Origin: an uncultured Veillonellaceae bacterium
Lineage (GTDB): Bacteria; Bacillota; Negativicutes; JARBTT01
Direction of reading: 5' to 3'
Assembly (NCBI GenBank): GCA_963805085.1
Contig: CAWDTA010000002.1
Location: forward strand, 1,664,001 to 1,728,000
Length of the DNA stretch: 64,000 bases
Position numbers and translations under genes: made by a program. The notes beneath the pieces were generated by a model that was not told where the DNA came from, searched no databases, and saw only the letters and a list, made by a program, of their open reading frames with translations. Shown here piece after piece: positions 5,343 through 28,815 of this stretch. How positions within the stretch are numbered: position 1 is the first letter of the stretch; every line of letters starts with the position of its first letter.

Positions 5343-5419
5343 AGGGAAGTAGCAAAATAGTGAGCAATGGGATAGAGCAGATTGTTTGTTATAAATAGTT
5401 CAGATCATATTTTATAAGT

Positions 5420-5458
5420 AAAAGCCGTTAGAAAAAATGATAATTTCTAACGGCTTTT
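5420..5458 (+). terminator. Intrinsic terminator
   Basis: AAAAGCCGTTAGAAA...TTTCTAACGGCTTTT inverted repeat after the DUF218 gene. Confidence 0.75.
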
Positions 5459-5711
5459 GCTATGTGTAGAAATGTGTTTGTTATTTATTTGAAAAAAAAA
5501 CAATATAAGCCATTTAAATTTAGGGGCTATAAAGAATATATATAATTGTGAGCCAATATACAGGAAGCTTTTCAAGGGGGGAAGATATAAAAAAATTGAA
5601 TATTTTTGATGAAAGGTAGGTGCTTTGCAAGAAAAATATTGGAGTAGAAGGATTGATGAGTTCTAGATTTTCCTAACTTACTAAATGAATAATATGAGGA
5701 GAGGTTTATCA

Positions 5712-8396
5712 ATGAGTACAAATTATAAAACTCGTTTTACAGAATTGTATAATAAAATTCATGATTCGAGCAACGGTTATTTTAGTTCCGACGGGATTCC
5801 TTACCATTCGGTTGAGACCTTAATATGTGAAGCACCTGATTATGGTCATTTGACAACAAGTGAAGCTTTTAGTTACTATGTGTGGCTTGAAGCAGTGAAT
5901 GGGAAAATTACAGGTGACTGGACTGGGCTTGTTACGGCGTGGGAAAAAATGGAGAAATATATGATTCCTACTACTGCGGACCAGCCAGCAAGCGGCTATG
6001 ATGATTCAAAGCCTGCTACTTATGCAGGGGAATGGGAACAGCCAAGCATGTATCCTAGTAAGCTTGAGTTTAGCACCCCTGTAGGCAAAGACCCTATCTT
6101 TAGCGATCTTAAAAACACCTACGGAGCCGATTTTATGTATGGCATGCATTGGCTCTTGGATGTGGATAATTGGTATGGGTATGGTACTAGAGGAGACGGG
6201 GTTACTAAACCTTCATACATTAATACATTCCAACGTGGTGAACAGGAATCCGTATGGGAAACCGTACCACAGCCATCCTGGGAAGCATTTAAAGCGGGTG
6301 GTCCAAATGGTTTCCTTGATTTATTTACTGGAGATTCGAGTTATTCTAAACAGTGGCGTTATACGAATGCGCCTGATGCGGATGCCCGGACAGTACAAGC
6401 AATGTATTGGGCTAATATATGGGCAAAGGAACAAGGGGTTGACCTAAGTTCATTGGTGAGCAAGGCATCAAAGATGGGTGACTATTTAAGGTATACATTG
6501 TTTGATAAATACTTTAAGCAAATCGGGTGCCAAGATAAGACGAATAAAGGGACAGGTTATGATTCCTGTAGTTATTTGATATCTTGGTACTATGCGTGGG
6601 GTGGAGGAATCAATGCTAACTGGGCATGGAAGATAGGTTGCAGTCATAATCATTTTGGGTATCAGAATCCTTTTGTTGCGTGGATATTGTCTAACGACAG
6701 CAGTTTCAAACCGAAATCTTCACAAGGTGCGGCAGATTGGGGTAAAAGCTTGACACGCCAGTTGGAGTTTTATCAATGGCTGCAGTCGGCAGAGGGCGCT
6801 ATTGCCGGTGGGGCAACAAACTCCTACAACGGAAGATATGAAGCGTATCCAGCAGGTACTGCTACCTTTTACGATATGGCTTATGTGGAAAATCCTGTAT
6901 ATAAAGATCCGGGGAGTAATACCTGGTTTGGCATGCAGGCTTGGTCTATGCAGCGTGTAGCACAATATTACTATAAGACTGGAGACAAAAAAGCACAAGA
7001 TCTACTTGGCAGGTGGGTAAAATGGATTAAACAATCCGTTAAGTTAAATACAGACGGTACCTTTGCAATACCTTCAACACTTAGCTGGTCTGGTCAACCC
7101 GATACATGGGCTGGCAGCTATACAGGAAATTCAGAGTTGCATGTGACGATAGTAAAATACGGCACAGATCTTGGTATTACAGGTTCACTGGCAAACGCAT
7201 TACTCTATTACAGTGCAGGTACAAAATTATGGTCTACGTATGATGATGATTCACGCGTGCTGGCGAAAGAATTGCTTGATCGTATGTGGACTTTATTCAC
7301 AGATTCGAAAGGTTTGTCCGCTACGGAGTCAATGGATACGTACAATCGTTTCTTCGATCAGGAAGTATACATTCCAACCGGTTGGTCCGGAAAAATGGCA
7401 AATGGTGATGTGATCAAGCCGGGAATTAAATTCATCGACATTCGTTCAAAATATAAGGAGGATCCTGATTGGGCTAAGGTCGAGAGTGCATATAAAGCAG
7501 GGGAAAATCCTTCGTTTAATTATCACAGATTTTGGGGGCAATGTGATATCGCCTTGGCAAATGCTACTTACTATCTATTGTTTAGCGAGGCAGTATCCAC
7601 AGTAGCGGTAGAGGTTACAGTGCCGACAGAAGGACAATCCTTCGAATATCCTTCTAAGGCAAGCCCGATAACAATTTCTGCGGATGCTTCGACCACAAGC
7701 GGGACAATCAGCAAAGTGACGTTTTTTGCCAACGGTACTAAGATTGGCGAATCGACTGCCTCTCCGTACAGCATAACTTGGTATCCGACAGGATATGCGC
7801 AGAGTGCGACTGGAATCGACTCGTATGCAATTACGGCAAGTGCTACAGACAGCAATGGTACAAGCGCTATCTCTGCTCCTGTAAATATTAAAATCAAACT
7901 GCCGATACGGCCTGAACCTGTCGGGAATTTGACACTAGAGGCCTACAATGGCAGTACAGCAGCAACAACCAATAGTATAAGTCCTAAAATCAAAATTACG
8001 AATTCCGGTGAGAACGAGGTAAGCCTGAGTACAGTAACAGTAAGATACTATTACACGATTGATACTGAAAAGGGTCAAAGCTTCTGGTGTGATAATGCAG
8101 CGATAACATCGGGGACTTACCGGAATTTAACAAGTAGTGTAACTGGTAGTTTTGTAAAAATGAGCACGGCAAAATCCGGTGCAGATTATTATCTTGAAAT
8201 TGGCTTTACAGCGGCAGCAGGCAGTCTTGCAGCGGGTGAGATTGTAGAACTACAGCTCCGGTTTGCCAAAAACGACTGGTCAAATTATACCCAGTCGAAT
8301 GATTATTCATTCAACTCCAGTGCCTCAACGTATGACGATGGTAGTAAGATAACTGCTTATATCTCCAGCCAGTTAATTTCTGGTACAGAGCCATAA
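5712..8396 (+). CDS. GH48 cellobiohydrolase with Ig-like and CBM3 modules, no signal peptide
   Basis: GH48 motifs [54 protein letters not shown]. Ig-like segment ([15 protein letters not shown]) then CBM3 (VRYYYT...YYLEIGFT...NDYSF...GTEP). ATG 5712 follows GAGGAGAGG. Confidence 0.95.
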
Positions 8397-8453
8397 ACAT
8401 AATGATTTAACCTAAATAAAATTATTAATAAGAAACAAAAGAATAAATAATGA

Positions 8454-8515
8454 GTCATGTTGTTATGAGGGCTTTGATGGCAACAATTAGCTTTAGCCTC
8501 TCATAACAACATGAC
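8454..8515 (+). other. Long intergenic stem-loop between GH48 and GH9
   Basis: Perfect 16-bp arms GTCATGTTGTTATGAG / CTCATAACAACATGAC with no U-tract directly at the base. Confidence 0.75.
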
Positions 8516-8570
8516 ATATAATTTTTTAGTTCGTTTTTTACATTATGTGTCGAAAGGAAGAGGTAGTAAA

Positions 8571-10667
8571 ATGGCAAATTCTAGAGGACTTGATTACTCT
8601 TTGGCGCTTAAAAATTCTATTATATTTTATGATGCTAACAAGTGTGGGAAGGACGTAGAAACGAATAATGAATTTTCCTGGAGAAGTGCATGTCATACTA
8701 GTGATGGCAGTGATAAAGGACTTGATCTAACAGGGGGCTATCATGATGCGGGTGATCATGTTAAGTTTGGATTGAATCAAGGATATGCAGCAGCAGTATT
8801 AGGGTGGGCATTATACGAATTCAAGGATACATTCGATGCAACAGGAAATACTGAAAAACTGCTTCAGCAAATAAAGCACTTTACAGATTATTTTTTAAAG
8901 AGTCACTCAAGTAGTGATATTTTCTACTATCAAGTGGGGGATGGAGATGTAGACCATTCTTATTGGGGATCGCCAGAGAATCAGACGAATGCTAGAACAA
9001 CTATGTATTTTGCGGATGCAACTCATCCAGCTTCTGATATTTTAGGCGAAACGTCTGCTGCACTGAGCCTTATGTACTTAAATTATAAAGACAAAGATGC
9101 TGATTATGCTAAGCAGTGCTTACAGACAGCAAAAGAGTTATATCAATTAGGGAAGGCCAATCAAGGTAAGGGCAATGGACAATCCTATTATACATCGTCA
9201 GATTATGCTGATGATTTAGCGTGGGCGGCTGTCTGGTTATATGTTGCAGTAAATGATGCGCAGTATCTTTCTGATGCTAAAAATTTTATCGTGTTAAATT
9301 CGACATCCTTGCAAAATAATTGGACAATGACTTGGGATAGTATGAAGCTTCCAGTAATCCTAAGACTGGGATATATAACTGGAGAGCAAACATACAAAGA
9401 TGCAATGGAATATAACTTTAATTATTGGAAAAATACATTAAAAACTACATCAGGCGGCTTGAAATTTTTAAGCGAGTGGGGTGTTTTAAGGTATGCCGCA
9501 GCAGAGTCGATGCTGGCACTAGTTTACTATAAGCATACTAAGGATGAGACACTTAAAACTCTGGCTAAATCACAGATCGATTATATTTTAGGAAATAACC
9601 CTGCTAATATCTCCTATATGATAGGTTTCGGTGATAATTGGCCGAAGCATCCTCATCACCGAGCTGCAAATGGGTATACATACGCTAACAATGATTATCT
9701 AAAGGAAGCTAAACATCTTCTTCTTGGAGCATTGGTTGGCGGACCGGATGCGAATGATAACTTTACAGATGATGTAACTAAGTACCAGTATACTGAGGTT
9801 GCCATTGATTATAATGCCGGTTTAGTAGGAGCACTTGCCGGTATGGTTAAAGTTAGCGGTTCGACTTCGGCAGTAACGGCAGAGGTTACAGCGCCGTCAG
9901 AAGGACAATCCTTCGAATATCCTTCTAAGGCAAGCCCGATAACAATTTCTGCGGATGCTTCGACCACAAGCGGGACAATCAGCAAAGTGACGTTTTTTGC
10001 CAACGGTACTAAGATTGGCGAATCGACTGCCTCTCCGTACAGCATAACTTGGTATCCGACAGGATATGCGCAGAGTGCGACTGGAATCGACTCGTATGCA
10101 ATTACGGCAAGTGCTACAGACAGTAATAGTACAAGCGCTATCTCTGCTCCTGTAAATATTAAAATCAAACTGCCGATACGACCTGAACCTGTCGGAAATT
10201 TGACACTAGAGGCCTACAATGGCAGTACAGCAGCAACAACCAATAGCATAAGTCCTAAAATCAAAATTACGAATTCCGGTCAGAGTGCGGTAAACCTGAG
10301 TACAGTAACAGTAAGATATTATTACACGATTGATACTGAAAAGGGTCAAAGCTTCTGGTGTGATAGTGCAGCAATAACATCGGGTACTTACCGAAACTTA
10401 ACAAGTAGTGTAACTGGCAGTTTTGTAAAAATGAGCACGGCAAAATCCGGTGCAGATTATTATCTTGAAATTGGTTTTACAGCGGCAGCAGGCAGTCTTG
10501 CAGCAGGTGAGACTGCAGAACTACAGCTCCGGTTTGCCAAAAACGACTGGTCAGATTATACCCAGTCGAATGATTACTCATTCAATTCCAGTGCCTCAAC
10601 ATATGCCGATGTCAGTAAGATAACTCTTTATATTTCCAGTCAGTTAATTTGTGGTACAGAACCGTGA
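8571..10667 (+). CDS. GH9 endoglucanase with Ig-like and CBM3 modules, no signal peptide
   Basis: DLTGGYHDAGDHVKF, HPHHR, GALVGGP, TEVAIDYNAG. ATG 8571 follows the RBS AAAGGAAGAGG; the ORF-track start at 8511 falls inside the stem-loop. Confidence 0.95.
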   Translation: MANSRGLDYSLALKNSIIFYDANKCGKDVETNNEFSWRSACHTSDGSDKGLDLTGGYHDAGDHVKFGLNQGYAAAVLGWALYEFKDTFDATGNTEKLLQQIKHFTDYFLKSHSSSDIFYYQVGDGDVDHSYWGSPENQTNARTTMYFADATHPASDILGETSAALSLMYLNYKDKDADYAKQCLQTAKELYQLGKANQGKGNGQSYYTSSDYADDLAWAAVWLYVAVNDAQYLSDAKNFIVLNSTSLQNNWTMTWDSMKLPVILRLGYITGEQTYKDAMEYNFNYWKNTLKTTSGGLKFLSEWGVLRYAAAESMLALVYYKHTKDETLKTLAKSQIDYILGNNPANISYMIGFGDNWPKHPHHRAANGYTYANNDYLKEAKHLLLGALVGGPDANDNFTDDVTKYQYTEVAIDYNAGLVGALAGMVKVSGSTSAVTAEVTAPSEGQSFEYPSKASPITISADASTTSGTISKVTFFANGTKIGESTASPYSITWYPTGYAQSATGIDSYAITASATDSNSTSAISAPVNIKIKLPIRPEPVGNLTLEAYNGSTAATTNSISPKIKITNSGQSAVNLSTVTVRYYYTIDTEKGQSFWCDSAAITSGTYRNLTSSVTGSFVKMSTAKSGADYYLEIGFTAAAGSLAAGETAELQLRFAKNDWSDYTQSNDYSFNSSASTYADVSKITLYISSQLICGTEP

Positions 10668-10729
10668 AATACTATTGAACAGGTATAAAACAGTGGTGCT
10701 GTTAAATAAAAAAAGTAGGTGGAAAGAGT

Positions 10730-13074
10730 ATGACATTAAAGGTAAGTATTGATACGAATTCAGAAAGAGCAGCAATCAGTCCTTATATCTATGGATCAAA
10801 TTTTGATTTTGAAAGTAATGAAGGTACAATTCCAGCTGTGGCTACAGCAAGTCGATTAGGTGGTAATCGCTTTACAGGGTACAATTGGGAAAACAATGCA
10901 TCCAATGCAGGAAGTGATTGGAAACACAGCAGTGATAATTATTTAACGACGAATCTTTCAACAGATAAGCAAAATATACCGGGGGTTGTAGTTACGAATT
11001 TTCAGGAAGAATGTTTAACAAATGGAACTTCATATTCACTTGTTACCTTACAAATGGCGGGGTATGCTGCTAAAGACAAAAACGGCACAGTTTCTGAAGC
11101 TGAATCAGCCCCTTCTGCAAGATGGGCGGAGGTCAAACCCAAAAAAGAGAGTACATTTTCAGATAATCCGGATGTAGATGATGACTATGTGTATATGGAT
11201 GAATTTGTTAATTTTTTGGTAGAAAAATATAAAGATGCATCGACAACAACAGGTATTAAAGGATATTCTTTAGATAACGAGCCGGGACTCTGGTCAAGCA
11301 CTCATCCAAGAATACATGCCAATAAGACTCAATGTACGGAGCTGATATCTAAAAGCATTGAGTTATCAAAAGCAGTAAAAGATGTAGATTCATATGCAGA
11401 AATATTTGGACCTGCTTTGTATGGAATGGGAGCTTACCAAAGCTTACAAAGTGCACCGGATTGGGACAGTGTAAAAGGCAGTTATAGCTGGTTTGTAGAT
11501 TATTATTTGGCTCAAATGAAAACAGCATCAAATAATGATGGTAGAAGGCTACTGGATGTATTGGATTTTCACTATTACCCCGAAGCTAAAGGGAGCGGGA
11601 TAAGAATAACGGAACAAACTGATTATACCAATACTGATTGTAATAAAGCCCGTATTCAGGCGCCAAGAACCTTGTGGGATTCAACCTATACAGAGGACAG
11701 TTGGATTGGTCAGTATTGTAAAAGCTATCTTCCACTGCTCCCAAAAATGCAGCAATCAATAAATGATTTCTATCCAGAAACAAAGATTGGCGTTACTGAA
11801 TATAACTTTGGAGGAAATGGTCACATTTCAGGTGGGATTGCTCAAGCGGATTTCTTTGGTATACTTGGTAAAGAAGGAGTTTATTTGGCAGCATTCTGGC
11901 CGTTTAGTGGCAAGAATGATTATGTACAAGCAGCTTTTAATTTATATAGAGACTATGATGGTAATAAATCAACTTATGGCGATATAAAAGTAAAAACAGA
12001 TACATCTGATAGTGAAAATTCATCTGTTTATGCTTCGGTATTTAACAACGATGATTCAAAATTGAACATAATTATGATTAATAAAAATTATGATCAGTCA
12101 ATGACAGTAAGCTTTAATGTGAATGGAAATAAAAATTATACCTCTGGGAGAGTATGGGGGTTTGACAAAGATAGTGCAAACATAACAGAAAGAACAGCGA
12201 TAACCAATATAAATGGCAACCAATTTTTATATGAGATACCTGCGCTAACTGTTTGTCATATTGTATTAACAGATGTATCAACAGTATCGGCAGAGGTTAC
12301 AGCGCCGTCAGAAGGACAATCCTTCGAATATCCTTCTAAGGCAAGCCCGCAATTTCTGCGGATGCTTCGACCACAAGCGGTACAATCAGCAAGGTGACAT
12401 TCTATGCCAACGGTACTAAGATTGGCGAATCGACTGCCTCTCCGTACAGTATAACTTGGTATCCGACAGGATATGCGCAGAGTGCGACTGGAATCGACTC
12501 GTATGCAATTACGGCAAGTGCTACAGACAGTAATAGTACAAGCGCTATCTCTGCTCCTGTAAATATTAAAATCAAACTGCCGATACGACCTGAACCTGTC
12601 GGAAATTTGACACTAGAGGCCTACAATGGCAGTACAGCAGCAACAACCAATAGCATAAGTCCTAAAATCAAAATTACGAATTCCGGTGAGAACGAGGTAA
12701 ATCTGAGTACAGTAACAGTAAGATATTATTACACGATTGATACTGAAAAGGGTCAAAGCTTCTGGTGTGATAGTGCAGCGATAACATCGGGGACTTACCG
12801 AAATATAACGAGCAATGTAACTGGTAACTTTGTAAAAATGAGCACGGCAAAATCCGGTGCAGATTATTATCTTCAAATTGGTTTCACGGCGGCAGCAGGC
12901 AGTCTTGCAGCAGGTGAGACTGCAGAACTACAGCTCCGGTTTGCCAAAAACGACTGGTCAGATTATACCCAGTCGGATGATTACTCATTCAATTCCAGTG
13001 CCTCAACGTATACCAATGCCAATAAGATAACTCTTTATAATTCAAGTCAATTAATTTGTGGGACAGAACCATAA
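10730..13074 (+). CDS. GH44 endoglucanase/xyloglucanase whose Ig-CBM3 tail is out of frame after a 4-bp deletion (ORFs 10730-12397 and 12394-13074)
   Basis: GH44 motifs ISPYIYGSN, RLGGNRFTGYNWENNASNAGSDW, LDNEPGLW, TEYNFGG. At about 12349 the sequence reads CCG-CAATTT where the other two copies read CCG-ATAA-CAATTT. Confidence 0.9.
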
Positions 13075-13162
13075 ATTAATTGACTAGGTATGAATTGAAT
13101 AGTTTTCTAAAAGCTTTTAAAAATAATCATTACCATAGAATATTGGAAATTTTAAAAAAATG

Positions 13163-13207
13163 ATAGTGAAGGCATAAAATAGGGGTGCTATTTTATGCCT
13201 TCACTAT
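13163..13207. terminator. Stem-loop terminator closing the cellulase operon
   Basis: ATAGTGAAGGCATAAAATAG...CTATTTTATGCCTTCACTAT. Confidence 0.75.
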
Positions 13208-16320: not shown

Positions 16321-17382
16321 ATGAACGACTTGCCAGTAGAGAAACTCGTCACAAATATTACGCAATTTTTTCCTGATTACAGCTATTGGATTTTTGACAT
16401 GCTAAATGACCCTTTGTTATTACTTGATGAGTCTGGCATGATTTTATTCATGAATGAGAAAGCACGCAAATTTTACGGGCATTCTCTAGAAGAGGCCCAG
16501 CAATTACATATTGCTGAGTTAGATTTAAATATAACCGTTGCAGCCAAGTATCTGCATACAATTCGTCAGTCAGGTGATGAAGGCTATATTTTTCTATCGA
16601 CGCACAAAAAAAAGAATAATGAGCTTGTACCGATACAAATTCATGCCCGCGATATCAGAATACATAGCAAAAGCATCTTTGCTTTGGTAATAAAAGACAT
16701 TTCGCTAGAACGGCAGCTCAAACAAGAATTTGAGGTTGCCAGTCGCATTCAAAAAAATATGTTGCCAGCAAATTATAAAAGTCCACTCGTTGAGATTCGT
16801 TCTATTTATCGACCGTATAACTACGTAAGCGGAGATTTTTTTGATTTTCAATGGGAAAATAGCCAGATTTTAAATGGTTATCTTCTTGATATTATGGGAC
16901 ACGGACTAGCTACATCACTTATCATGTCGGCTCTCAGAGTGCTGCTGTCGCAAGCTTTTACGAAGCAGTTACCATTAAATGAGAAATTAGCTTGGTTTAA
17001 TCAACAGGCTATTCCTTTCTTGGCGGAAGATTCCTTTGCTGCACTTATTTGTTTTTCACTTGATTTTGACAAGCAAGAACTAACCTATAGTATGGCTGGC
17101 ATTAATCATTTTCTCGCAATTACGCAAGGTCAGACATGCGTGATCAAAAAGCCTGGCATCTTTGCTGGGTTAGACAAAAAAGCTGATTTTGAGTGTCACA
17201 CAATGCCTTTTGGCTCTGGTGATGTCTTTTATTTTATGACGGATGGGCTATTTGAGCTACTTCCTACGCCAGCCAAATTTTGCCCGAGCAGTTACGCTGA
17301 AAGTTATCGCTGGCTGTTCAGAGCAGCGCGTAGTCCTAATCGTCGTGATGATGTTTCTGCATTATGTTTACATATTAAATAA
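16321..17382 (+). CDS. PAS domain plus PP2C/SpoIIE phosphatase (RsbU/RsbP-like)
   Basis: N-terminal PAS; ASRIQKNMLP, VSGDFF, DIMGHG, MTDGL, RRDDVS. Confidence 0.9.
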   Translation: MNDLPVEKLVTNITQFFPDYSYWIFDMLNDPLLLLDESGMILFMNEKARKFYGHSLEEAQQLHIAELDLNITVAAKYLHTIRQSGDEGYIFLSTHKKKNNELVPIQIHARDIRIHSKSIFALVIKDISLERQLKQEFEVASRIQKNMLPANYKSPLVEIRSIYRPYNYVSGDFFDFQWENSQILNGYLLDIMGHGLATSLIMSALRVLLSQAFTKQLPLNEKLAWFNQQAIPFLAEDSFAALICFSLDFDKQELTYSMAGINHFLAITQGQTCVIKKPGIFAGLDKKADFECHTMPFGSGDVFYFMTDGLFELLPTPAKFCPSSYAESYRWLFRAARSPNRRDDVSALCLHIK

Positions 17383-17409
17383 GTCCTTTAAAGATTGGAA
17401 TGATGATAC

Positions 17410-18681
17410 ATGAAACTTACTTTACGAATGAAACTTTTAACCGGATTTTTTTCACTACTCGTGCTTACACTAGCTGGGCAAATGTACATGTTAGCCAACG
17501 CTAGACAAGGTTCGCAGACTGCGCTAAGTCAAATGATCGGTGAAAATATCATTTTACTTATCATTGAAATAGCAGTAGCTATCTTTATTGTTTTTCTTCT
17601 AGAACGTTCCATTCTCAAGTCGATTAATATATTGCGTCAAACAATGAAGATGGCTGGAGAAGGTGATCTCACCGTGCACAGCCAGATGCAGACGCATGAC
17701 GAATTCGGTGCGCTGGCAGATTCCTTTAATAGTATGATTGATAGTCAAGATCACATTGTTCGCCAAGTATCCGATGCCAGTGACCAACTATCTGCTGCCT
17801 CAGAGGAAATGTCAGCCTCGTCCCAAGAAGTAACGGCTTCTTTTGAAGAAATAGCTGCTAGTATGCAATCATTGACTGGTGAAACAGAAAAAGGCAATCA
17901 GGCAGTTCTAGAAGCATCGCAAGCTTTGGTGCAATTGTCGTCGCTTATTCAAATGGCGAAGCTTAAAGCTACTACGACATCGAAAGATTCAGTAGCTACC
18001 AAAGGTGCTGCAGAGCAAGGCCTTAGCAATGTCCAGGAAACCATCCAAACCATGACGAAGATTAAAAGTCAAACCCAAGTGACTTCAGATATGATTGCTG
18101 ATTTAAACAATTACTCACAGCAAATCAGTCAGATTATTGATACCATTACCTCTATTTCAAAGCAAACAAACTTGCTTGCCTTAAATGCGGCTATCGAAGC
18201 CGCCCGCGCCGGAGAACATGGCAAAGGTTTTTCCGTAGTAGCCGAAGAGGTGCGGAAGCTAGCCGAACAATCCAATCAAGGAACCCAAGAAATCACACAC
18301 TTAATTGAAAATGTATCGCAAAAAACAGCAGAGGTAGTTACTGCTATGGCTGAAAATAGCACGCAGGTAGAAGAGGGCGTAAACGCAGTAACGAAAACTG
18401 GTAGTGCGTTAGATGTCATTTTGCAGGCGGTGAAACATACCGCGAATGAAATTAATGAAATCACCAATATTGCTGCCGAAGAAGTAGCCAATTCTGATCA
18501 GATTGTGAAACTCATTGATAAACTCGCCAGCATCATCGAAGCTGTAGAACATCATACAGAACAAATTTCGGCTGCTACTCAGCAACAAGCAGCAGCTATG
18601 CAAAACGTTTCAAGCTGCGCTGAAGAAACAGCAGCCATGTCTAGTACGTTAAAAAATAGTGTCAGCCATTTCAAATTATAA
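17410..18681 (+). CDS. Methyl-accepting chemotaxis protein with a minimal external loop
   Basis: Two TMs, a HAMP domain and [35 protein letters not shown]. Confidence 0.93.
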
Positions 18682-18769
18682 TTTAAGTAAGTTAAGACAA
18701 AACGGGGGATACAAACTTTATCTCTTATCCCTACAAATAATTTTTAGAATTAAATAAAACGACTAGTAT

Positions 18770-18833
18770 TAGAGCCACTAAGATTGTGTGTACTGTATTC
18801 TTGCTGACAGTAGACGCAATCTTTGTGGCTCTA
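18770..18833 (+). terminator. Long hairpin after the MCP gene
   Basis: TAGAGCCAC..AGATTG...CAATCT..GTGGCTCTA imperfect inverted repeat. Confidence 0.55.
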
Positions 18834-19016
18834 TTATTGAATGTGTGTAACTTAGATAATTGACATGTTCTGATAATAAATATCAAGTAATATTGTGAGT
18901 TGACAATTGCTTACAGTAAATGTACTATTTAGCTATATTCAGTTATTTTATACTATAAATTAAGAAGAAAGTACCGGTAGCCTTGAAAAACAAAATTTAT
19001 TGTGAAATAACGAGGA

Positions 19017-21827
19017 GTGATAAAAGTGCGTGATATGAAGGATAAGCATGAGAAAGTAATGGAGAATTTAGTTCCCGTTGTATTTAGATATATAGCAGAG
19101 CAAGTGATTGAGGCTATTCTCGTATTTGATGTTCGCGGTAAAGTGATGTATGCGAATCATGCGGCTTCTAATGTTTATGGTCATTCCGCAGATGAATTTC
19201 AAAGCTTCAGTATTCACGATTTATATTCTCCTAAAGACAGGCATCGTATTGATGAACACATGAAAGCAGCGGAGCAAAAGATTGCTCTACATAAAGTTAC
19301 TCACGTAGGGCGAGATGGAAAGAGCTTTCCGGTGGAAATAAGTTTTTGTAGTGCTAGTTTTGGGAAAGATGAAGTGCTGATCAGCATTATCCAAGCGCTT
19401 CATGGGGAAAAGAAAGAGACGCTAATAACAGGGTATGAAAATCAAAACCAGTTACTACATGAAGAACTTTTGGCCGCCTATGAGGAACTTACCGCCTCGG
19501 AAGAAGAACTAAGGCAGCAATTTGACGAATTATTGGTGAAAGAAGAAAAAATTTATCGTCAAAATACGTTGCTAAATCTGCTACATGATACAGCTAAAGG
19601 TCTCATGGCTGACCTTGATCATGAAGATGTATTTAAAAAAATTATTTATGGAATTAGAGAGCTTTTCGATACGCCTAATAGTTTCGTATATTATGTAAAT
19701 GAAGAGACAAGGATATATACGTTAAAAATAGGAACGGGTGTTTTTAGTAAACTTCCGAGAGAGGGAGAAATTACCAAAGGAATTATTGGACAGGCGTATA
19801 GAACAGGGAAGGCGGCTGTTGTTGATAACTATAGTAGCTGGTCACGTCGCTTAACCAATCCGATATTTGACGAATTACATTATTTTGTCCTAGTTCCGTT
19901 AAAAAACAGAGATAAAATGATTGGTGCAATCGGACTTGCCTTTTCCGAGTCGGATAGGATTCTTGATGTAGAAGAATTTTTTTTGTTAGAACGATTCGTT
20001 GATCTTGCAGCGCTTGCTTTGAGTAATGCTTTATTGGTAGCTTCTTTACATAACGAAATTAAAGAACATAAACAGGCCGAGCAGGTGCGACAACAACAGG
20101 AAGAAGTATTAATAGCCAGCAGAAATAAGCTATCTTTGGCGGCAGGGCTAGCTAACCTAGGACCGTGGGAGTATAACCCTGAGACGGAACTTTATGAATT
20201 CGGCGATGAGTTTTACGCTGTCTATGGTACGGACGTAGCGAGGGAAGGGTGTTTTATGTCTTTGGACACCTATGTCAGAGAGTTCGTACATCCGGAAGAT
20301 GCTTGGATGTTTAAAAAAGAAAAAAATTTTCTTTTGGCTGAGGAAGGATTCAGTGCTAGTGATATGGGACATCGGATCATTCGGCGGGACAGTGAGGTAC
20401 GCACCGTTATTGTACGCCGAAGTGCTGTTAGAAATGCCAAGGGAAAGATTATAAAGACATTTGGAACAAACCAGGATGTTACTGAGCGGGTGCAGGTAGA
20501 GGAAGAGCGGCGGAAACAGGCTGAAACCATCAAGCATATGGCTTACTTTGATTCATTGACGGGTCTTGCAAATCGACATCATTTAAATGAATGGTTAAAT
20601 AACGAAATGGAACGGGCGCGTGCTGGAAAAGCGTCGGGCGTTATTCTATTTATTGATTTAGATGATCTAAATATGGTTAACGATACGTATGGTCACTCTT
20701 ATGGTGATAAGATTATTAGTGCGGCCGGAGCCAGAGTCGTCGATGGTGCAGGTGAAAAAGCCTTTGTGGCGCGAATTGACGGGGATGAGTTTGTCGTAAT
20801 CTTATCCGGACAGTATGACCGGGGGCAAATCGAAAAAATTGCCAATAGAATAAGTAAAGAACTAGGGAAAAAGCAGGAAATCCTCGGAAGACGCTTCCAT
20901 ATGACAGCAAGTATCGGTATTGCTTCTTATCCTACCGATGGCGATACAACGGAAGAAATAATTAAAAATGCCGATAATGCAATGTATGCAGCCAAAAGAG
21001 ACAACAAGAATTGCTGGCGCTTCTATACCGAGGCAATGCAGACAGAGGCATATAAAAAAATACAGCTGACTGGTAGCTTACGATATGCGCTGGAGCGGGG
21101 TGAGCTTTCAATTGTATATCAGCCGCAGATACATACCAACGAAAAAACTGTGATTGGATTTGAGGCGCTTTTGCGTTGGAACAGCGTTGAATATGGGGCT
21201 GTGTCACCCATGCATTTTATTCCACTCGCTGAGCAATACGGTCTTATTCACAGCATTGGGCAATGGGTTCTACGTGAGGCTTGCCAATTTGCCCGGCGTT
21301 TGGCCGACAAAGGCTGGAGCGGAGTGCATATCGCGGTGAATATATCGTCGAAACAAATAGCCTCGGATGATTTTATCGCCGTTGTCCGCAGTGCTGTTGA
21401 TGAGGCTGGCATCCAGCCAGAGCAGCTTGAACTTGAAATTACCGAGAGTTCATTGATGACGTCAATTGAGGATGCTACGAGTAAGCTTGTCCAACTGAAA
21501 GAGTTTGGGGTACATCTATCATTAGACGATTTTGGTACAGGTTTTTCGTCCTTGACCTATTTGCGCAGATTGCCGGTTGAGTCGCTTAAAATTGACAAAT
21601 CTTTTATCGATATGATAACAACTGATGCCCAAGGAGCGAAAATTATCGGCTCCATTATAAATATGGCGCACACGATTCATATGAACGTTGTCGCTGAAGG
21701 GGTGGAAAATGAGTTGCAATTGAAATACTTGGCTGATAATGGCTGTGATCTTATCCAAGGCTATCTATACAGTCGCCCAGTACCGGAAGCTGAGGCGATG
21801 AAGTTCCTATCTGGTAAGGCTTGCTGA
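19017..21827 (+). CDS. PAS-GAF-PAS-GGDEF-EAL signalling protein
   Basis: YFDSLTGLANR; degenerate RIDGDEF; intact EAL domain motifs (FEALLRW, ELEITES, DDFGTGFSS, KIDKSF, EGVE). Confidence 0.93.
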   Translation: MIKVRDMKDKHEKVMENLVPVVFRYIAEQVIEAILVFDVRGKVMYANHAASNVYGHSADEFQSFSIHDLYSPKDRHRIDEHMKAAEQKIALHKVTHVGRDGKSFPVEISFCSASFGKDEVLISIIQALHGEKKETLITGYENQNQLLHEELLAAYEELTASEEELRQQFDELLVKEEKIYRQNTLLNLLHDTAKGLMADLDHEDVFKKIIYGIRELFDTPNSFVYYVNEETRIYTLKIGTGVFSKLPREGEITKGIIGQAYRTGKAAVVDNYSSWSRRLTNPIFDELHYFVLVPLKNRDKMIGAIGLAFSESDRILDVEEFFLLERFVDLAALALSNALLVASLHNEIKEHKQAEQVRQQQEEVLIASRNKLSLAAGLANLGPWEYNPETELYEFGDEFYAVYGTDVAREGCFMSLDTYVREFVHPEDAWMFKKEKNFLLAEEGFSASDMGHRIIRRDSEVRTVIVRRSAVRNAKGKIIKTFGTNQDVTERVQVEEERRKQAETIKHMAYFDSLTGLANRHHLNEWLNNEMERARAGKASGVILFIDLDDLNMVNDTYGHSYGDKIISAAGARVVDGAGEKAFVARIDGDEFVVILSGQYDRGQIEKIANRISKELGKKQEILGRRFHMTASIGIASYPTDGDTTEEIIKNADNAMYAAKRDNKNCWRFYTEAMQTEAYKKIQLTGSLRYALERGELSIVYQPQIHTNEKTVIGFEALLRWNSVEYGAVSPMHFIPLAEQYGLIHSIGQWVLREACQFARRLADKGWSGVHIAVNISSKQIASDDFIAVVRSAVDEAGIQPEQLELEITESSLMTSIEDATSKLVQLKEFGVHLSLDDFGTGFSSLTYLRRLPVESLKIDKSFIDMITTDAQGAKIIGSIINMAHTIHMNVVAEGVENELQLKYLADNGCDLIQGYLYSRPVPEAEAMKFLSGKAC

Positions 21828-22067: not shown

Positions 22068-23786
22068 ATGAAAAATAAAGGTTTGCTTGATTTGTTTGCT
22101 GAAAAGGATAAGGACGTTAGCCGTAGGCTTTTTCTTAAAAGTTGTGGAGCTTCTATCGTACTCGCAGGAATGCCGTTTAATTTAACTGAAATTTTTGCTG
22201 CTAGTAGTATAGCGGCAAGCCATGTTACATTGACTTGGGGGCTTGATCCTAAAACTACCCAAACAATTGCATGGTCTACAGATACCAGTATAACCAAAGG
22301 TACCATTCAAGCTGTAAAAACAAAAAAATTCCGCAAGAGTGGTTGGGAGCACGCACAGGCTTTAGATACAGAATTAGAACTATTTAATACCAATAAAGGC
22401 GATTTTAATATTCATTTTGCAACCCTCGAAGGTTTAACATCAGGGACGCAGTATACATATCGGGTAGGTAGCGAAAATAGCTGGAGCGATCCTGAGACTT
22501 TTACAACAGAGCATGATGGCGATAAGGCCTTTAAGTTCTTAGTGTTTGGTGATTCACAAAGTGGTTTGCCGAAAAATCCAGAATATGGTCCATGGCGCAC
22601 GACCATTCATAACGCATATGCTGCCAATCAGGATGCCGCTTTCTTTATGAATGTTGGTGACTTAGTTGAAATTGGACAAGATCAGGCACATTGGAAAAAC
22701 TGGTACGAAGCAGCACAAGATGTAATAGAAAAAATCCCCAATATGGCTGTGCCAGGAAATCATGAAACCTATGATGTACCTGAAGAAAATCATTCGGTGC
22801 TACCGATTAACTTTAAAAAACAGTTACGCTTACCGAAAAACGGTCCAGAGGCCTTAAAGGGGCAAGCGTATTCCTTTGATTATGGAAATACGCATTTTGC
22901 AATACTTGACAGCCAGGAACAAGAAGAAGGTCAGTACGTTCCTAATATGCTAGCACTTGAGGCAGAATGGCTTGACAAAGATTTGTCAGCAACAAATAAA
23001 AAATGGAAGATTGTCCTATTCCATAAAACTCCATACTATAATAAAGCCTTTCGTTCCAATGAAAAATTAAAAGCCGTACTAACCCAAATTATGGATAAGC
23101 ATCATGTTGATTTAGTTATCAATGGTCATGATCATGGCTATTCAAGAACATATCCTATTTATCAAGATTCATTTGTTAGCACGCCAGACCAAGGAACCAT
23201 CTACCTTGTTGCGGGTAGAAGTGGAAATAAATTTTATACTGACTTATCAGCCAAAGTTTGGGATGCCTTTTTCCACGACCCTCAGGCCGAACCTAATTAT
23301 ATCGCAATTGAGGTCGCGGGAGATGTATTGACGATTCGAGCTTATATGCAAGGCGGAAGTTTAATTGATACCTATAGTATTGATAAATTAAATAAAACTG
23401 ACGTGCCTCGTACGATTCTACCAGAAAAGTCTAATGATACGCGTCTGGTTATCTGGGGCAATATGTTGCAAAATCCTCTTGTCAATTTGCCACCACAAGA
23501 AATATCCGGGGTTTGGCATTTGCCACTACGCAGTTTTGTAGAATTTATTGGCGGTGAAGTTACCGCCGATCGTAACGGAAATGTCATTACAAAATATAAA
23601 TCGACTGAAATCAGCTTTACCTTAGGTGAAAAACAGGCAGTGAATAATAATGCTCCTATTACATTAGCATATCCGCTACTCCTCACCAAAGGTACTGCTA
23701 TGATTTCCACTGATGATGTGAAGACTTTGTGGGATTTCCATTCTCGCTTCGATCAAAATACCAATATGTTGATGCTAGCAAAATAG
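22068..23786 (+). CDS. Tat-exported purple-acid-phosphatase-like metallophosphoesterase with FN3 and C-terminal copper-amine-oxidase-N-like domains
   Basis: SRRLFLK twin-Arg signal; FGDSQ, GDLV, PGNHE, NGHDH; C-terminal LPLRSFVEFIGGEV. Confidence 0.88.
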   Translation: MKNKGLLDLFAEKDKDVSRRLFLKSCGASIVLAGMPFNLTEIFAASSIAASHVTLTWGLDPKTTQTIAWSTDTSITKGTIQAVKTKKFRKSGWEHAQALDTELELFNTNKGDFNIHFATLEGLTSGTQYTYRVGSENSWSDPETFTTEHDGDKAFKFLVFGDSQSGLPKNPEYGPWRTTIHNAYAANQDAAFFMNVGDLVEIGQDQAHWKNWYEAAQDVIEKIPNMAVPGNHETYDVPEENHSVLPINFKKQLRLPKNGPEALKGQAYSFDYGNTHFAILDSQEQEEGQYVPNMLALEAEWLDKDLSATNKKWKIVLFHKTPYYNKAFRSNEKLKAVLTQIMDKHHVDLVINGHDHGYSRTYPIYQDSFVSTPDQGTIYLVAGRSGNKFYTDLSAKVWDAFFHDPQAEPNYIAIEVAGDVLTIRAYMQGGSLIDTYSIDKLNKTDVPRTILPEKSNDTRLVIWGNMLQNPLVNLPPQEISGVWHLPLRSFVEFIGGEVTADRNGNVITKYKSTEISFTLGEKQAVNNNAPITLAYPLLLTKGTAMISTDDVKTLWDFHSRFDQNTNMLMLAK

Positions 23787-24625: not shown

Positions 24626-25723
24626 ATGAAAGGTTTTAAAGTGAAATATTGGGCCATCCCAGTTGTAGTATTTATTGGATTATTTTTAGTATTTCGCAGC
24701 GGTGCACTTTCCAGTGGAAAAAACCAGTTGCAAACCACTAATTCTCAAATAAACGTAAAAGTAGCAGAAGCACAGCTTTTAAATACGGTACCGAATTTAA
24801 TGTTGAATGGCTCGATTGAAGGGAAAACATCGGCGATTATTAGTGCAAAGCTGGCGGGGCGTATTGAACAAGTCCTAGTGCAAGAAGGACAGCACGTCAA
24901 TACCGGTGATTCTTTAGCTAAATTAGAAAGCGCAGAGCTTGTAAATTCTGTGCGTACTGCGCGAGATGCCGTGACTAAAGCACAGGTCAATTATGATTTA
25001 GCATTGAGTGACTATCAGCGTTATCAGACACTATATAACCAAGGAGCTACATCTCGGCAAACCTTAGATACTGCTGAAGCAAAAAAAAGAACTGCCCAAG
25101 CAGAATTGTCAAGTGCAGTTACGAGTCAAAGTAACGCGGAGCAACAGTATGGTTATGGCGTCCTTGTAGCACCAGTGGACGGTGTGGTTGCTAACGTAAC
25201 AGCAACTGTTGGCCAAGTTGTTTCTCCTGGTGCGGCCCTCATGGCTGTTCAGGACATTAGCCAAGTATATGTAGTTGTTAATATTGAACAAAAGGATTTG
25301 TCTCTAGTCAAAATTGGTCAGAAAGCGGAAGTGACAGTTGATACCTATGCCAACAAAGTATTTGCTGGGATTGTTGAGCTGATTAATCCGGAAGCGGGTA
25401 CAGCTAACCGGATGTTCCGTACTAAGGTAAAAATCGATAATACAGATGGTGCTTTAAAAGCAGGTATGTTTAGTAAAGTACAGTTAGCTACAGGTGATGC
25501 TGTACAGCGTTTGAAAATTCCTCAAGAGGCAGTTATTCAGAAACAAGGTATTTACTATGTCTTTACTGTTGAAGATGATAAAGCGGTGCGTCATCAGGTC
25601 GAGATTGGTACTGCTACAGGTGAGGTCATTGAGATTAAATCGGGGTTGCAACCAGGTGAAAAGGTAGTTGTCAGCAATGTCAGCCAACTTAAAGATGGTG
25701 ATTCATTGAAAGTAGTGGAATAG
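24626..25723 (+). CDS. RND efflux periplasmic adaptor (MFP)
   Basis: N-terminal TM, lipoyl halves (GRIEQVLVQEGQHV; APVDGVV), GLQPGEKVV. Confidence 0.92.
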   Translation: MKGFKVKYWAIPVVVFIGLFLVFRSGALSSGKNQLQTTNSQINVKVAEAQLLNTVPNLMLNGSIEGKTSAIISAKLAGRIEQVLVQEGQHVNTGDSLAKLESAELVNSVRTARDAVTKAQVNYDLALSDYQRYQTLYNQGATSRQTLDTAEAKKRTAQAELSSAVTSQSNAEQQYGYGVLVAPVDGVVANVTATVGQVVSPGAALMAVQDISQVYVVVNIEQKDLSLVKIGQKAEVTVDTYANKVFAGIVELINPEAGTANRMFRTKVKIDNTDGALKAGMFSKVQLATGDAVQRLKIPQEAVIQKQGIYYVFTVEDDKAVRHQVEIGTATGEVIEIKSGLQPGEKVVVSNVSQLKDGDSLKVVE

Positions 25724-25734
25724 GGGAGATAACC

Positions 25735-28700
25735 ATGATATTGACAGAGATTAGTTTAAAGCGTCCAGTATTTGCCACAGTGACAATTCTGGCCTTGGTC
25801 GTTTTAGGATTATTTAGTTATGTGTCTCTAAACGTAGATGAATATCCGAATGTTGAAATCCCAGTTGTGTCCGTTACCGTTAAGTATCCTGGCGCATCGC
25901 CAGAGCAGGTTGAATCGAAAATCACCCAGAAAGTTGAAGAAACAATCAGTGTTGTTCCAGGAATTGATCATGTAACGTCCACTGTAAAAGAAGGGGTATC
26001 CACGACGGTTATTCAGTTTACCATAGAAACGTCAGCGGCAACTGCTGCACAAGATGTTCGCGACAAAGTTGGTAGAATGCAAGGCATATTACCTGATGAT
26101 GCAGAGCTTCCTATTGTTACTCGATTTGATCCCTCTGATACAGCCGTGGCTTCTATTGCATTGATTGGTAATAGAAGCCCACGAGAGCTAACGATTATTG
26201 CCGATGATACTGTTGTGAAAAGGCTCGAAGCAATCAATGGAGTAGCGGCGGTCAATGTCCAAGGTGGGGTAGATCGTGAAATCAAAATCAATATGGATAG
26301 TGATAAAATAGCTGCTTATGATCTGACAGTTACTGAAGTGCTAAACAGTATACGAAATGAAAATATGGACACTCCAGGTGGCAAGGTGACTGACGGAAAA
26401 CGTGAAACTAGTTTACGATCAATTGGCAATGTTTCCTCGCCGAATCAGTTCCTTAATCTTCCCATTGCCCAGCGAAATGGAGCTCAGCTGTATGTAAAAA
26501 ATATTGCTGAAGTAGAGGACACAACCAAAGATCCAACTACTGTAACAAAACTGAATGATAAAACGGCTATTGGTCTAGACATTATGAAACAGTCGGGTAG
26601 CAATACAGTACAGGTTGTTGAAAATGCAAAAAAGGAACTAGAAAATATCAAAAAAGAGTTACCTCCTGGTGTGGAGCTCATCATGGTGCGGGACAATTCA
26701 AAAAGTATTAATGATTCAATTCACGACGTATTATTTAATTTGGTTCTAGGTGGTTTCTTGGCAGTTGCCATCGTGTTATTATTTTTGGGTAATTGGCGTA
26801 GTACAATGATTGCCGCCATTGCCATCCCAACTTCGATTATTACTTCATTTCTAGCGATGAAAATTTTAAATTATACGTTAAATACCATGTCATTACTAGC
26901 TTTATCCTTGGCAGTAGGGCTTTTGATTGATGATGCGATTGTTGTCATCGAGAATATAGTGCGCCACCTTGAGATGGGTAAAGATAAAGATAAGGCTGCT
27001 TCTGAAGGGACAGAGGAGATTGGCTTAGCTGTTACCGCAACAACCCTCACGTTGGTGGCTGTATTTTTGCCAGTGGGAATGATGACAGGGATTGTAGGAC
27101 AATTTTTCAAACAATTCGGTGTTACGGTGGCAGTCAGTGTTTTAGTATCCTTATTTGTTGCCTTTACATTGACGCCTATGCTATCGGCAAAGTATTTAAC
27201 TGGCAGCCATACGCAATCAGGCACTAAGTTAGCAAAAATATGGGGAAGATGGAACGAAAAATTTGAATATTGGACAGGCCGTTATGGAGGGTTCCTTAGA
27301 TACGCCTTAGAACATCGGAAGAAAGTAATGGCCATGTCGGTTGGATTATTTGTAGGCAGTTTACTACTTCTCCCTTTCCTCGGCTCGACTTTTGTCCCGG
27401 ATTCTGATGCTGGGGAAATTACAGTATCGGCCATCGTTGATGCCGGTAAAAGTCCACAAGCGGTTGGTGAAATCGCGGATAATATGTCCCAGATTATCCG
27501 CACGATCCCAGAAGTTACGTTGACCTATAGTTCTGCGGATATAAACAATATTACGATCTTGACCAAATTAACGCCAAAGAGCGAACGTAAGATTAGTGAT
27601 AATCAAATTATTACAAACCTTCGCGAAAAATTAGGTGGAATTGCTGGAACACAAGTTAGTGTTTCGAAAAAATCAGGCATGTCAGGTGGCAAGCCAATAT
27701 CTCTTGTGATTCAGGGAACGTCTTTGGACACATTGGCTGAAATTGCTGAGCAGGTAGAGCAACTGATGAAGAGCACACCTGGTGCAATTGATGTTTCTTC
27801 TAGTTATGAAGCTGGCAAGCCTGATGGTCAAATCGTGGTTAACCGAGATAAGGCTTCGGATCTTGGCGTATCGACTTCCAATATTGCCAGTACTTTGCAA
27901 ACTATGTTTAACGGAACAATTGTAACACAGTATCGCGATGAAGATGACTCCTATGATGTGCGCCTTATTTTAGCACCTGGCGACCGCACGAGCTTAGCAG
28001 ATGTAAATAATATATATGTAGCAAGTTCTAATCGTGATAAAAATGGGCAAGCGGCCATGGTGCCTCTGTCACAGGTAACTCAAATGGTCTATGCCACAAG
28101 CCCAACGCAAATTATGCGTTATGATCGTCAGGAGCAAGTCACTATTTCGGCAAATCTAAGTGGGGTATCTCTTGGCGATTTCAATACAGTATTCAACAAA
28201 AAATTAGCAGAAGTGAAACTGCCTGAGGGATATAAATTTGTCTCTACAGGTCAAACGCAGCAAATGGCTGATGCTTTTACAGGTATCTTAATGGCGCTGG
28301 CGTTGGCAGTGATGTTTATTTTCTTTGTACTTGCCGCCCAATTTGAAAGCTATATTGACCCATTTGCCATTATGTTGGCGTTACCTTTGGCGATTATTGG
28401 CGCAATACTTGGACTGCTCTTTGCCCATAGCATGCTCAGTATGATGTCTTTAATTGGGATTATTATGCTCATGGGCCTTGTAACGAAAAATGCTATTTTA
28501 CTGATTGACTTTGCTAAGCAACGTATTGAGCAAGGCACAGAGCGCAATCAAGCATTGATTGAAGCCGCTGTTGTCAGGATGCGTCCGATTATCATGACAA
28601 CAACAGCTATGATCTTTGGGATGCTTCCGTTAGCATTAGGAATTGGACCTGGAGCGGAAGCACGGGCTCCTATGGCTCATGCGATTATTGGCGGATTGAT

Positions 28701-28815
28701 TACTTCAACAATTTTAACGTTAGTAGTGGTCCCGGTTGTGTATACCTTACTTGATGATTTAAGGCAAAGAAAAGTAGATAAGCAGTTACAGAAATCGTTC
28801 ATTAAAAAGGATTAG
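25735..28815 (+). CDS. RND efflux permease (AcrB/SwrC family)
   Basis: RPVFATV, GASPEQVE, GLLIDDAIVVIENI, KNAILL, RMRPIIMTT; 1026 aa. Confidence 0.95.
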   Translation: MILTEISLKRPVFATVTILALVVLGLFSYVSLNVDEYPNVEIPVVSVTVKYPGASPEQVESKITQKVEETISVVPGIDHVTSTVKEGVSTTVIQFTIETSAATAAQDVRDKVGRMQGILPDDAELPIVTRFDPSDTAVASIALIGNRSPRELTIIADDTVVKRLEAINGVAAVNVQGGVDREIKINMDSDKIAAYDLTVTEVLNSIRNENMDTPGGKVTDGKRETSLRSIGNVSSPNQFLNLPIAQRNGAQLYVKNIAEVEDTTKDPTTVTKLNDKTAIGLDIMKQSGSNTVQVVENAKKELENIKKELPPGVELIMVRDNSKSINDSIHDVLFNLVLGGFLAVAIVLLFLGNWRSTMIAAIAIPTSIITSFLAMKILNYTLNTMSLLALSLAVGLLIDDAIVVIENIVRHLEMGKDKDKAASEGTEEIGLAVTATTLTLVAVFLPVGMMTGIVGQFFKQFGVTVAVSVLVSLFVAFTLTPMLSAKYLTGSHTQSGTKLAKIWGRWNEKFEYWTGRYGGFLRYALEHRKKVMAMSVGLFVGSLLLLPFLGSTFVPDSDAGEITVSAIVDAGKSPQAVGEIADNMSQIIRTIPEVTLTYSSADINNITILTKLTPKSERKISDNQIITNLREKLGGIAGTQVSVSKKSGMSGGKPISLVIQGTSLDTLAEIAEQVEQLMKSTPGAIDVSSSYEAGKPDGQIVVNRDKASDLGVSTSNIASTLQTMFNGTIVTQYRDEDDSYDVRLILAPGDRTSLADVNNIYVASSNRDKNGQAAMVPLSQVTQMVYATSPTQIMRYDRQEQVTISANLSGVSLGDFNTVFNKKLAEVKLPEGYKFVSTGQTQQMADAFTGILMALALAVMFIFFVLAAQFESYIDPFAIMLALPLAIIGAILGLLFAHSMLSMMSLIGIIMLMGLVTKNAILLIDFAKQRIEQGTERNQALIEAAVVRMRPIIMTTTAMIFGMLPLALGIGPGAEARAPMAHAIIGGLITSTILTLVVVPVVYTLLDDLRQRKVDKQLQKSFIKKD

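Follow-up and report, generated by a model that had tools for sequence, protein, structure and literature searches.

A three-gene cellulase cassette lacking export signals in a diderm host

How does a cellulase with no signal for leaving the cell reach cellulose? The question is raised by a 7.7-kb cassette at positions 5381 to 13076 of a 64,000-nucleotide stretch of contig CAWDTA010000002.1 (assembly GCA_963805085.1, from an uncultured Veillonellaceae bacterium); the whole of this stretch is called the window below. The cassette encodes glycoside hydrolases (GHs) of families 48, 9, and 44. It is very probably a mobile unit in which each enzyme is of the type catalytic domain, Big_7 domain, and family 3 carbohydrate-binding module (CBM3) and truly lacks an N-terminal export signal. 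Our best complete explanation, a mobile leaderless cassette whose enzymes would be released mainly by partial lysis, is a tentative first choice held at a little under even confidence. Cellulose is an insoluble, extracellular substrate, and a conserved, selected, and apparently expressed set of signal-free enzymes contradicts the textbook picture.

A minimal free cellulase set with intact catalytic domains

The region holds four open reading frames (ORFs), all on the forward strand. The first (5712 to 8396) encodes an 894-residue GH48 exoglucanase in which the Pfam profile PF02011 scores 1,045 bits over residues 5 to 624 (profile positions 1 to 619 of 619), followed by Big_7 and CBM_3. The second (8571 to 10667, 698 residues) encodes a GH9 endoglucanase (447 bits, residues 9 to 422, profile positions 1 to 444 of 444), again followed by Big_7 and CBM_3; it is of the Cel9M type, with a catalytic domain alone and neither an Ig-like N-domain nor a fused CBM3c. 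The third (10730 to 12397) encodes a 555-residue GH44 endoglucanase catalytic domain (PF12891, 255 bits) whose frame is cut by a deletion, and the fourth is the out-of-frame tail that formerly belonged to GH44, a partial Big_7 followed by CBM_3 (12350 to 13074). CBM_3 scores 91 to 92 bits on GH48 and GH9 and 91 bits on the detached tail (ORF 12394 to 13074), where the Big_7 fragment, at 22.4 bits, is under the cut-off. A genome search matched the three catalytic domains and the tail only to this locus in the host's own genome.

The original prediction, made from the letters alone, judged the catalytic motifs intact, and full-length alignments to solved structures agree. GH48 matches 6d5d, 4el8, and 1f9o at 938 to 1,093 bits across query residues 4 to 626. 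The best of these is 6d5d (1,093 bits, query 5 to 625), with which it shares identical TTSEA and APDADAR stretches, which we take to hold the catalytic residues. GH9 aligns to 1ia6 (Cel9M) at 674 bits (query 8 to 429 on chain 5 to 430), and HDAGDH and YTEVA(I/L)DYNAG, presumably functional motifs of the family, are identical in both. GH44 matches 2e0p at 669 bits (query 4 to 513), or 2e0p and 3ik2 together at 657 to 669 bits (query 2 to 513); its SLDNEP and VTEYNFGG pair with SIDNEP and ITEYDYGG of the solved domains, and we assume that the DNEP and TEY stretches are functional motifs of GH44. None of the four ORFs has a dockerin by Pfam, in line with the predicted dockerin-free design; the genome-wide search did not extend to cohesin and dockerin families. 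The cassette is a minimal free, noncellulosomal cellulase set made up of a GH48 exoglucanase and two endoglucanases, a Cel9M-type GH9 and a GH44.

No room for a signal peptide upstream of the catalytic domains

In-frame stop codons lie close upstream of GH48 (5682 to 5684), GH9 (8475 to 8477), and GH44 (10703 to 10705), with stop-to-stop frames opening at 5685, 8478, and 10706. These leave at most 9, 31, and 8 codons before the starts MSTNYK, MANSRG, and MTLKVS, each of which is preceded by a purine-rich, Shine-Dalgarno-like motif, and therefore no signal peptide can be encoded. The longest of the three stretches, before GH9, contains a single upstream ATG (8511), which sits inside a terminator-like hairpin. 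Because its frame is broken by a 1-nucleotide indel in a metagenome relative (L020), this 31-codon stretch is taken to be noncoding. Alternative upstream starts were thus rejected on the nearby stops and, for GH9, on the indel. Upstream in-frame stops recur in L020, in a further metagenome contig from a relative (L039), and in a locus of Clostridium sp. 19966 (L003).

Comparison with solved structures points the same way. Alignments to 6d5d and 4el8 (GH48), 1ia6 (GH9), and 2e0p and 3ik2 (GH44) open at query residues 2 to 8 against the first residues of the crystallized mature domains. The claim that all three proteins begin in the catalytic domain without a Sec, twin-arginine (Tat), or lipoprotein signal therefore holds up against the near stops and the mature N termini of solved homologs; its simplest refutation, real signal peptides supplied by upstream in-frame starts, finds no space in the codons available. 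On sequence grounds, the Sec, Tat, and lipoprotein routes are excluded for these enzymes.

Other exported proteins of the window bear Tat or lipoprotein signals, and the host therefore uses classical targeting. For example, a purple-acid-phosphatase-like protein at 22068 to 23783 combines a Cu_amine_oxidN1 domain at its C terminus with a twin-arginine leader (SRRLFLK...), showing that ordinary export signals are in use near the leaderless cellulases.

Leaderless homologs

The missing leader is shared with close homologs. The GH48 survey covered the best 120 clusters, and the hydrophobicity script on which its counts rest scored only GH48 homologs. The nine closest clusters all have the GH48-Big_7-CBM3 architecture, and eight of them (65 to 93% identity) start 1 to 11 residues before the domain without a hydrophobic segment; the exception, from Clostridium manihotivorum (P0005), has a leader. 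Across the 120 clusters, 18 are clearly leaderless and another two show a longer polar extension and nothing more; of the three ambiguous clusters, P0022 and P0034 probably have miscalled starts and P0112 is a fragment. For GH9, all four orthologs at 75 to 96% identity are leaderless, and every other hit with an inspected N terminus (26 of 26, among 120 listed) bears a hydrophobic leader. For GH44, P0241 and P0242 are leaderless, and the inspected dockerin-bearing clostridial relatives have hydrophobic leaders in all cases except P0243 and P0251, whose short polar starts may be truncated calls.

A FastTree phylogeny was built from 81 GH48 catalytic domains after rows sharing 90% or more identity across their first 200 residues had been removed. 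Nine of the 10 rows in its Big_7-CBM3 clade (Shimodaira-Hasegawa-like support, 86) are leaderless, and this clade splits into a subclade containing the window (support, 99) and a Clostridium subclade (support, 98). In a member of the latter group's genus, Clostridium sp. 19966 (P0006), an in-frame TAA abuts the GH48 ATG. The same Clostridium locus (L003, 17726 to 20328) contains signal-bearing neighbors, one with a CBM3-like sequence right after the leader, and GH48 is the only leaderless protein there.

At least two further leaderless groups, independent losses on the same tree, lie within its Lachnospiraceae-type GH48s. Leaderless proteins of this kind (P0036, P0038, P0073, and P0088, with relatives, from Lacrimispora, Clostridium boliviensis, and Hungatella) begin with the M-x-x-K-E-L-L-K that opens the long leaders of signal-bearing kin, as though a deletion had removed the hydrophobic core alone. 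At 50% identity, clustering leaves a single signal-bearing representative for all Firmicute GH48s; P0371, P0391, P0404, and P0406 are candidate further leaderless lineages in that set. Taken together, leaderlessness is conserved among orthologs rather than a local accident. The trait is thus present in the window as first described and is not unique to it, occurring in orthologs at 65 to 96% identity.

A cassette exchanged between lineages

Two metagenome contigs, L020 and L039, delimit the cassette. L020 matches the window only from 5381 (97% identity over 5381 to 10096), and homology with L039 stops at 13076. At the left end, 5381 to 5711 comprises the upstream region and the GH48 5' leader, with a hairpin at about 5417 to 5461, and is 92.8% identical in L020. 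Genes beside the cassette in L020 have orthologs at three other places of the window's genome; the relative carries the cassette at another genomic site. Synonymous divergence (dS) between window and relative is 0.05 to 0.07 in the catalytic parts of the cassette, compared with 0.24 to 0.74 in five backbone genes of the same relative. Given this disparity and the different site, the cassette was exchanged recently between lineages.

Ratios of nonsynonymous to synonymous divergence (dN/dS) are 0.158 for GH48 (against L020), 0.148 for GH9, and 0.189 for GH44, values that place the cassette under purifying selection. Blastn against the genome found no flanking repeats at the cassette ends, and no transposase or mobility gene was present in the cassette or among the scanned ORFs (110 to 28812). 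Foreign base composition was considered and rejected, with a GC content of 0.36 to 0.45 in the cassette, 0.34 to 0.47 in its neighbors, and 0.374 in the genome. Just downstream of the cassette in L039 (3182 to 3389), about 200 bp recur in the window's genome at three or more loci (C2, near 551, 1397, and 1519 kb), with 94 to 98% identity.

Transcription and RNA elements

A peat metatranscriptome library (X1) yielded contigs over 5557 to 7639, 8318 to 9906, and 10712 to 12317 at about 97 to 98% identity, which touch all three genes; three soil and groundwater DNA runs, each from a different study, also contain relatives. Transcription of the cassette in peat is likely. Differences in X1 depth between genes are unusable for ranking expression. 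The RNA-library contig opens at 5557, whereas contigs from the DNA runs reach back to 5381, which weakly hints that transcription starts about 155 nucleotides before GH48. A silent operon with inactive enzymes, which would have refuted the original prediction, is hard to reconcile with dN/dS values of 0.15 to 0.19, RNA-library contigs, and full-length matches to characterized enzymes.

Between GH48 and GH9, a forward-strand hairpin with a 20-pair stem and a T-rich run (8456 to 8513) has a minimum free energy of -35 kcal/mol (z, -7.4), and none of 200 shuffles folded as well. This intergenic region is 98% identical in L020, and the RNA-library contig 8318 to 9906 crosses the hairpin, which is likely an attenuator or an element stabilizing the GH48 mRNA and not a full terminator. 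A second terminator-like hairpin with a 20-pair stem, on the same strand (13163 to 13207), lies in the host flank outside the cassette. The GH48 leader was rejected as a structured element, folding no better than shuffles (z, -0.63), and Rfam placed no family in it (two chance-level hits, E values of 0.19 and 0.54, far under the gathering score). A sigma-70 scan was uninformative, with 31 sites against 25.5 +/- 6.1 expected and none in 5381 to 5711.

A frameshift in GH44 and three nearly identical tails

Relative to the two paralogous tails and to the L039 ortholog, the GH44 copy has lost 4 bp between 12349 and 12350. The deletion shifts the frame, ending GH44 at 12397 and leaving its Big_7-CBM3 tail out of frame (12350 to 13074) in an open frame of 12340 to 13074 whose first start codon is a GTG at 12394. 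L039, at 96% DNA identity, keeps the four bases and encodes an intact 782-residue GH44-Big_7-CBM3 protein (P0241). The description of all three enzymes as carrying CBM3 is therefore true of the cassette type, and here of GH48 and GH9, and false for GH44 in this genome. The start of the repeated tail stops contigs from all four public runs at 12345 or earlier, and none bridges the deletion site; a sequencing error is possible. The detached tail is more diverged than other parts of the cassette (90% amino acid identity to the L039 tail; dN/dS, 0.32).

The three Big_7-CBM3 tails (7599 to 8396, 9871 to 10667, and 12275 to 13074) are about 95% identical in DNA, and the catalytic families that they follow are unrelated. 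This likeness, together with a dS against L020 of 0.11 in the GH48 tail versus 0.05 in the GH48 catalytic part, suggests ongoing gene conversion among the tails, which presumably keeps them nearly identical. The same C-terminal end occurs in signal-bearing homologs (P0005 and P0200), and for that reason the tail is not a signal peculiar to leaderless proteins.

The catalytic domains point to Clostridium. GH9 is 67 to 73% identical to dockerin-bearing Cel9M-type Clostridium proteins, GH44 is 66 to 78% identical to dockerin-bearing Clostridium GH44s, and the cassette tail matches the tail of Clostridium GH48 and GH9 proteins. On this evidence the cassette looks like a set of clostridial catalytic modules refitted with one common tail.

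A diderm host and the cassette's neighborhood

LpxC (309 bits) and Omp85 (168 bits) are encoded on the same 2.1-Mb contig as the window, and the host genome has at least six OEP/TolC-like genes. Given these genes, the host is diderm, as originally proposed. The nearest feature clusters of a backbone neighbor are from Bacillota, a lead only, and a Negativicute assignment fits. The genome is 83% complete with 6% contamination, and absences from it are provisional.

Among 401 genomes of the class, only the window's own gave a GH48 domain; the other 400 were a sample. The single congener among the 400 (G001) is a known false negative in this tally. Its contigs (C275 and C146, in loci L055 and L058) end at window position 5436 and resume at 12823 inside the CBM3 tail, so that it evidently carries the cassette at the same site, where the repeats broke the assembly. 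Short-read bins readily drop cellulase clusters rich in repeats, a source of bias in surveys of gene presence and absence. GH48 is thus as unexpected in such a host as first stated, with the congener as the evident exception.

Within about 8 kb of the cassette there is no gene for a transporter, a beta-glucosidase, or secretion, matching the original description of an isolated set (for the transporter, a cellodextrin transporter was meant). Five GH1 genes and one GH3 gene are present in the genome, including a GH1-GH3 pair about 34 kb upstream of the cassette, making use of the cellulase product by the host plausible. The flanks at 110 to 1213 and 16321 to 21824 encode a 7TM-GGDEF protein, a PAS-PP2C phosphatase, a chemotaxis receptor, and a PAS-GAF-GGDEF-EAL protein; these signaling genes, in which the flanks are rich, are backbone, outside the cassette.

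How the enzymes could reach cellulose

Because Sec, Tat, and lipoprotein export are excluded, signal-bearing proteins share the tail, and the cassette is linked to no exporter, we favor lysis of a fraction of the cells, a possible route that is somewhat more apt to be wrong than right. The cassette brings no export machinery and none adjoins it. The enzymes must be synthesized in the cytoplasm and would reach cellulose without Sec or Tat; a fraction of cells would lyse on the fiber and free them, the CBM3 tail would then retain them on cellulose, and surviving kin would import the cellobiose, a public-goods release. The reading of Sec-independent export or lysis in the original prediction stands in this general form. 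Of the particular settings proposed with it, release at sporulation loses support, since Spo0A_C and SpoIVA were not found in the 83% complete genome, and remodeling of self-made cellulose does likewise, since BcsB was not found there either. That earlier reading did not include the frameshift in GH44, the cassette's mobility, or the spread of leaderless GH48s beyond this genome.

Several points weigh against partial lysis. Lysis, or any release, is reached by elimination alone. Reliance on it is costly, and odd where Sec export works, as in Clostridium sp. 19966, whose GH9 just upstream of the leaderless GH48 has a classical signal peptide. With at least six TolC-like genes in the host, a route for one-step export physically exists. 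The RNA-library support consists of assembled contigs with no silent control stretch, and DNA carry-over is possible; the genome is incomplete and partly contaminated, as stated above; and the GH44 frameshift could be an early sign of cassette decay in this host.

A dedicated Sec-independent exporter is a doubtful alternative, and yet the strongest of the others. It could be a type I system that recognizes a signal in the tail and works through TolC-like channels, or one of the holin/peptidoglycan-hydrolase ("type 10"-like) kind. In its broader form, which we also consider unlikely though worth stating, a Sec-free, CBM3-tagged cellulase clade would travel as a three-gene cassette among anaerobes of peat and soil, a two-membrane Bacillota lineage among them, and an undescribed, host-supplied Sec-independent route, for which the uniform Big_7-CBM3 tail could be the recognition module, would export its enzymes across one or two membranes. 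The shared C-terminal module, about 95% identical in DNA among the three enzymes, speaks for an exporter, as do the HlyD-type adaptors and the TolC-like genes of the host, and efficient export would more readily explain a leaderless state kept across 65 to 96% identity and across hosts. Against it, no ATP-binding cassette transporter/membrane fusion protein pair, holin, or endolysin lies beside the cassette or moves with it: Pfam showed no holin or peptidoglycan hydrolase in the listed ORFs of at least 80 residues (110 to 28812; holins were not searched genome-wide), no such transporter pair adjacent, and no repeats-in-toxin or other repeats, though type I signals are poorly defined. The HlyD/AcrB pair at 24626 to 28812 is a resistance-nodulation-division efflux pair, the C terminus is an ordinary CBM3 end common to signal-bearing homologs, and monoderm clostridia bear the same leaderless GH48.

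It is improbable that the cassette is a recent passenger, useless in a diderm host, with enzymes that stay cytoplasmic and genes beginning to decay. The frameshifted, more diverged GH44 tail would suit that account, as would the failure to find GH48 in the 400 other genomes sampled and the lack of adjacent partner genes. Against these stand the low dN/dS over all three genes, an intact cassette in a second lineage and one at the same site in the congener, the RNA-library contigs, and leaderless orthologs retained down to 65 to 75% identity.

A non-nutritional role has little probability. Leaderless, lysis-released effectors exist in other systems, and the enzymes could in principle attack cellulose walls or cysts of eukaryotes after bacterial lysis or ingestion, or remodel a bacterial cellulose matrix. 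The cyclic di-GMP signaling genes that flank the region would fit, except that they belong to the host flank outside the mobile cassette. The unfound BcsB and the GH1 and GH3 genes for product use argue otherwise, and GH48 plus GH9 with CBM3 is the classic set for crystalline plant cellulose.

Intracellular action on imported cellodextrins is very unlikely. It would account for enzymes without export signals, and no GH94 phosphorylase for cytoplasmic cellodextrin breakdown was found in the 83% complete genome; it leaves unexplained why each enzyme has, or had, a CBM3 that binds insoluble cellulose and why the set includes GH48, a processive enzyme of crystalline cellulose, and no cellodextrin transporter is adjacent.

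An artifact of missed starts, or of clostridial genes chimerically assembled into a diderm genome, which contamination and tail repeats that break short-read assemblies might invite, is scarcely credible given the upstream stops in the window, L020, L039, and L003, two further independent assemblies that tie the cassette to the lineage backbone (L020, and G001 at the same site), and LpxC and Omp85 on the same contig.

If partial lysis is the route, programmed lysis would regularly deliver cellulases in anoxic soils and peat; if it is not, an unknown export route would exist. The compact design, three catalytic families with one shared tail and no leader, may also interest enzyme engineers.

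Comparison with known systems

Both the enzyme families and the design of free cellulases have precedents. What appears to be new is the loss of leaders across a whole set, residence in a diderm member of the Bacillota, and cassette-like mobility, on which we found no report in the part of the literature accessible to us; that part likewise yielded no account of bacterial GH48 or CBM3 cellulases without leaders, and none of a GH48 in a Negativicutes genome. To our knowledge, and in line with literature searches and the search of 401 genomes, there is no earlier GH48-based crystalline-cellulose system in diderm Bacillota.

The closest catalytic domains are those of cellulosomal Cel48F/CelS, Cel9M, and Cel44 (1f9o, 1ia6, 2e0p, and 3ik2), with GH48 matching over its full length. 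Those enzymes, from mesophilic clostridia, combine a signal peptide with a dockerin and are assembled on a scaffoldin, whereas the window enzymes have Big_7-CBM3 in place of the dockerin and no leader, and no cohesin or scaffoldin was seen with them. In free design the nearest counterpart is the two-enzyme system of Thermoclostridium stercorarium, in which CelY (GH48) and CelZ (GH9) both have CBM3. CelY (P0020) is 59% identical to the window's GH48, but it has a hydrophobic leader and CBM_X2 where the latter is leaderless with Big_7, and its host is a monoderm thermophile.

For release of large extracellular-acting proteins without signal peptides, the best functional analogy is offered by holin or lysis systems, such as those that free the chitinases of Serratia marcescens (ChiWXYZ) and the toxins TcdA and TcdB of Clostridioides difficile (TcdE), or the mother-cell lysis that frees Clostridium perfringens enterotoxin. 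Those systems have a holin or endolysin beside the cargo or depend on sporulation, unlike the cassette, which has no such gene adjacent and a host in which Spo0A and SpoIVA were not found.

Lachnospiraceae GH48-CBM3-X2 proteins (Lacrimispora amygdalina, Clostridium boliviensis, and Hungatella sp.; P0038 and P0088 clusters) also have no hydrophobic N-terminal segment, but these represent independent losses, and their accessory module is PF03442, not Big_7. The nearest parallels are Clostridium akagii (WP_242841144.1, P0008 cluster) and Clostridium sp. 19966, whose GH48-Big_7-CBM3 proteins are leaderless like that of the window, 66 to 67% identical to it over their full length, and placed in the sister subclade; in the literature available to us, no report commented on them. 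Their hosts are monoderm, unlike the window's host, and in Clostridium sp. 19966 only GH48 is leaderless, with a signal on GH9 and no GH44 partner in the locus. With leaderless GH48 in cultured C. akagii, Clostridium sp. 19966, and L. amygdalina, the route that these enzymes take to cellulose can be tested in existing strains.

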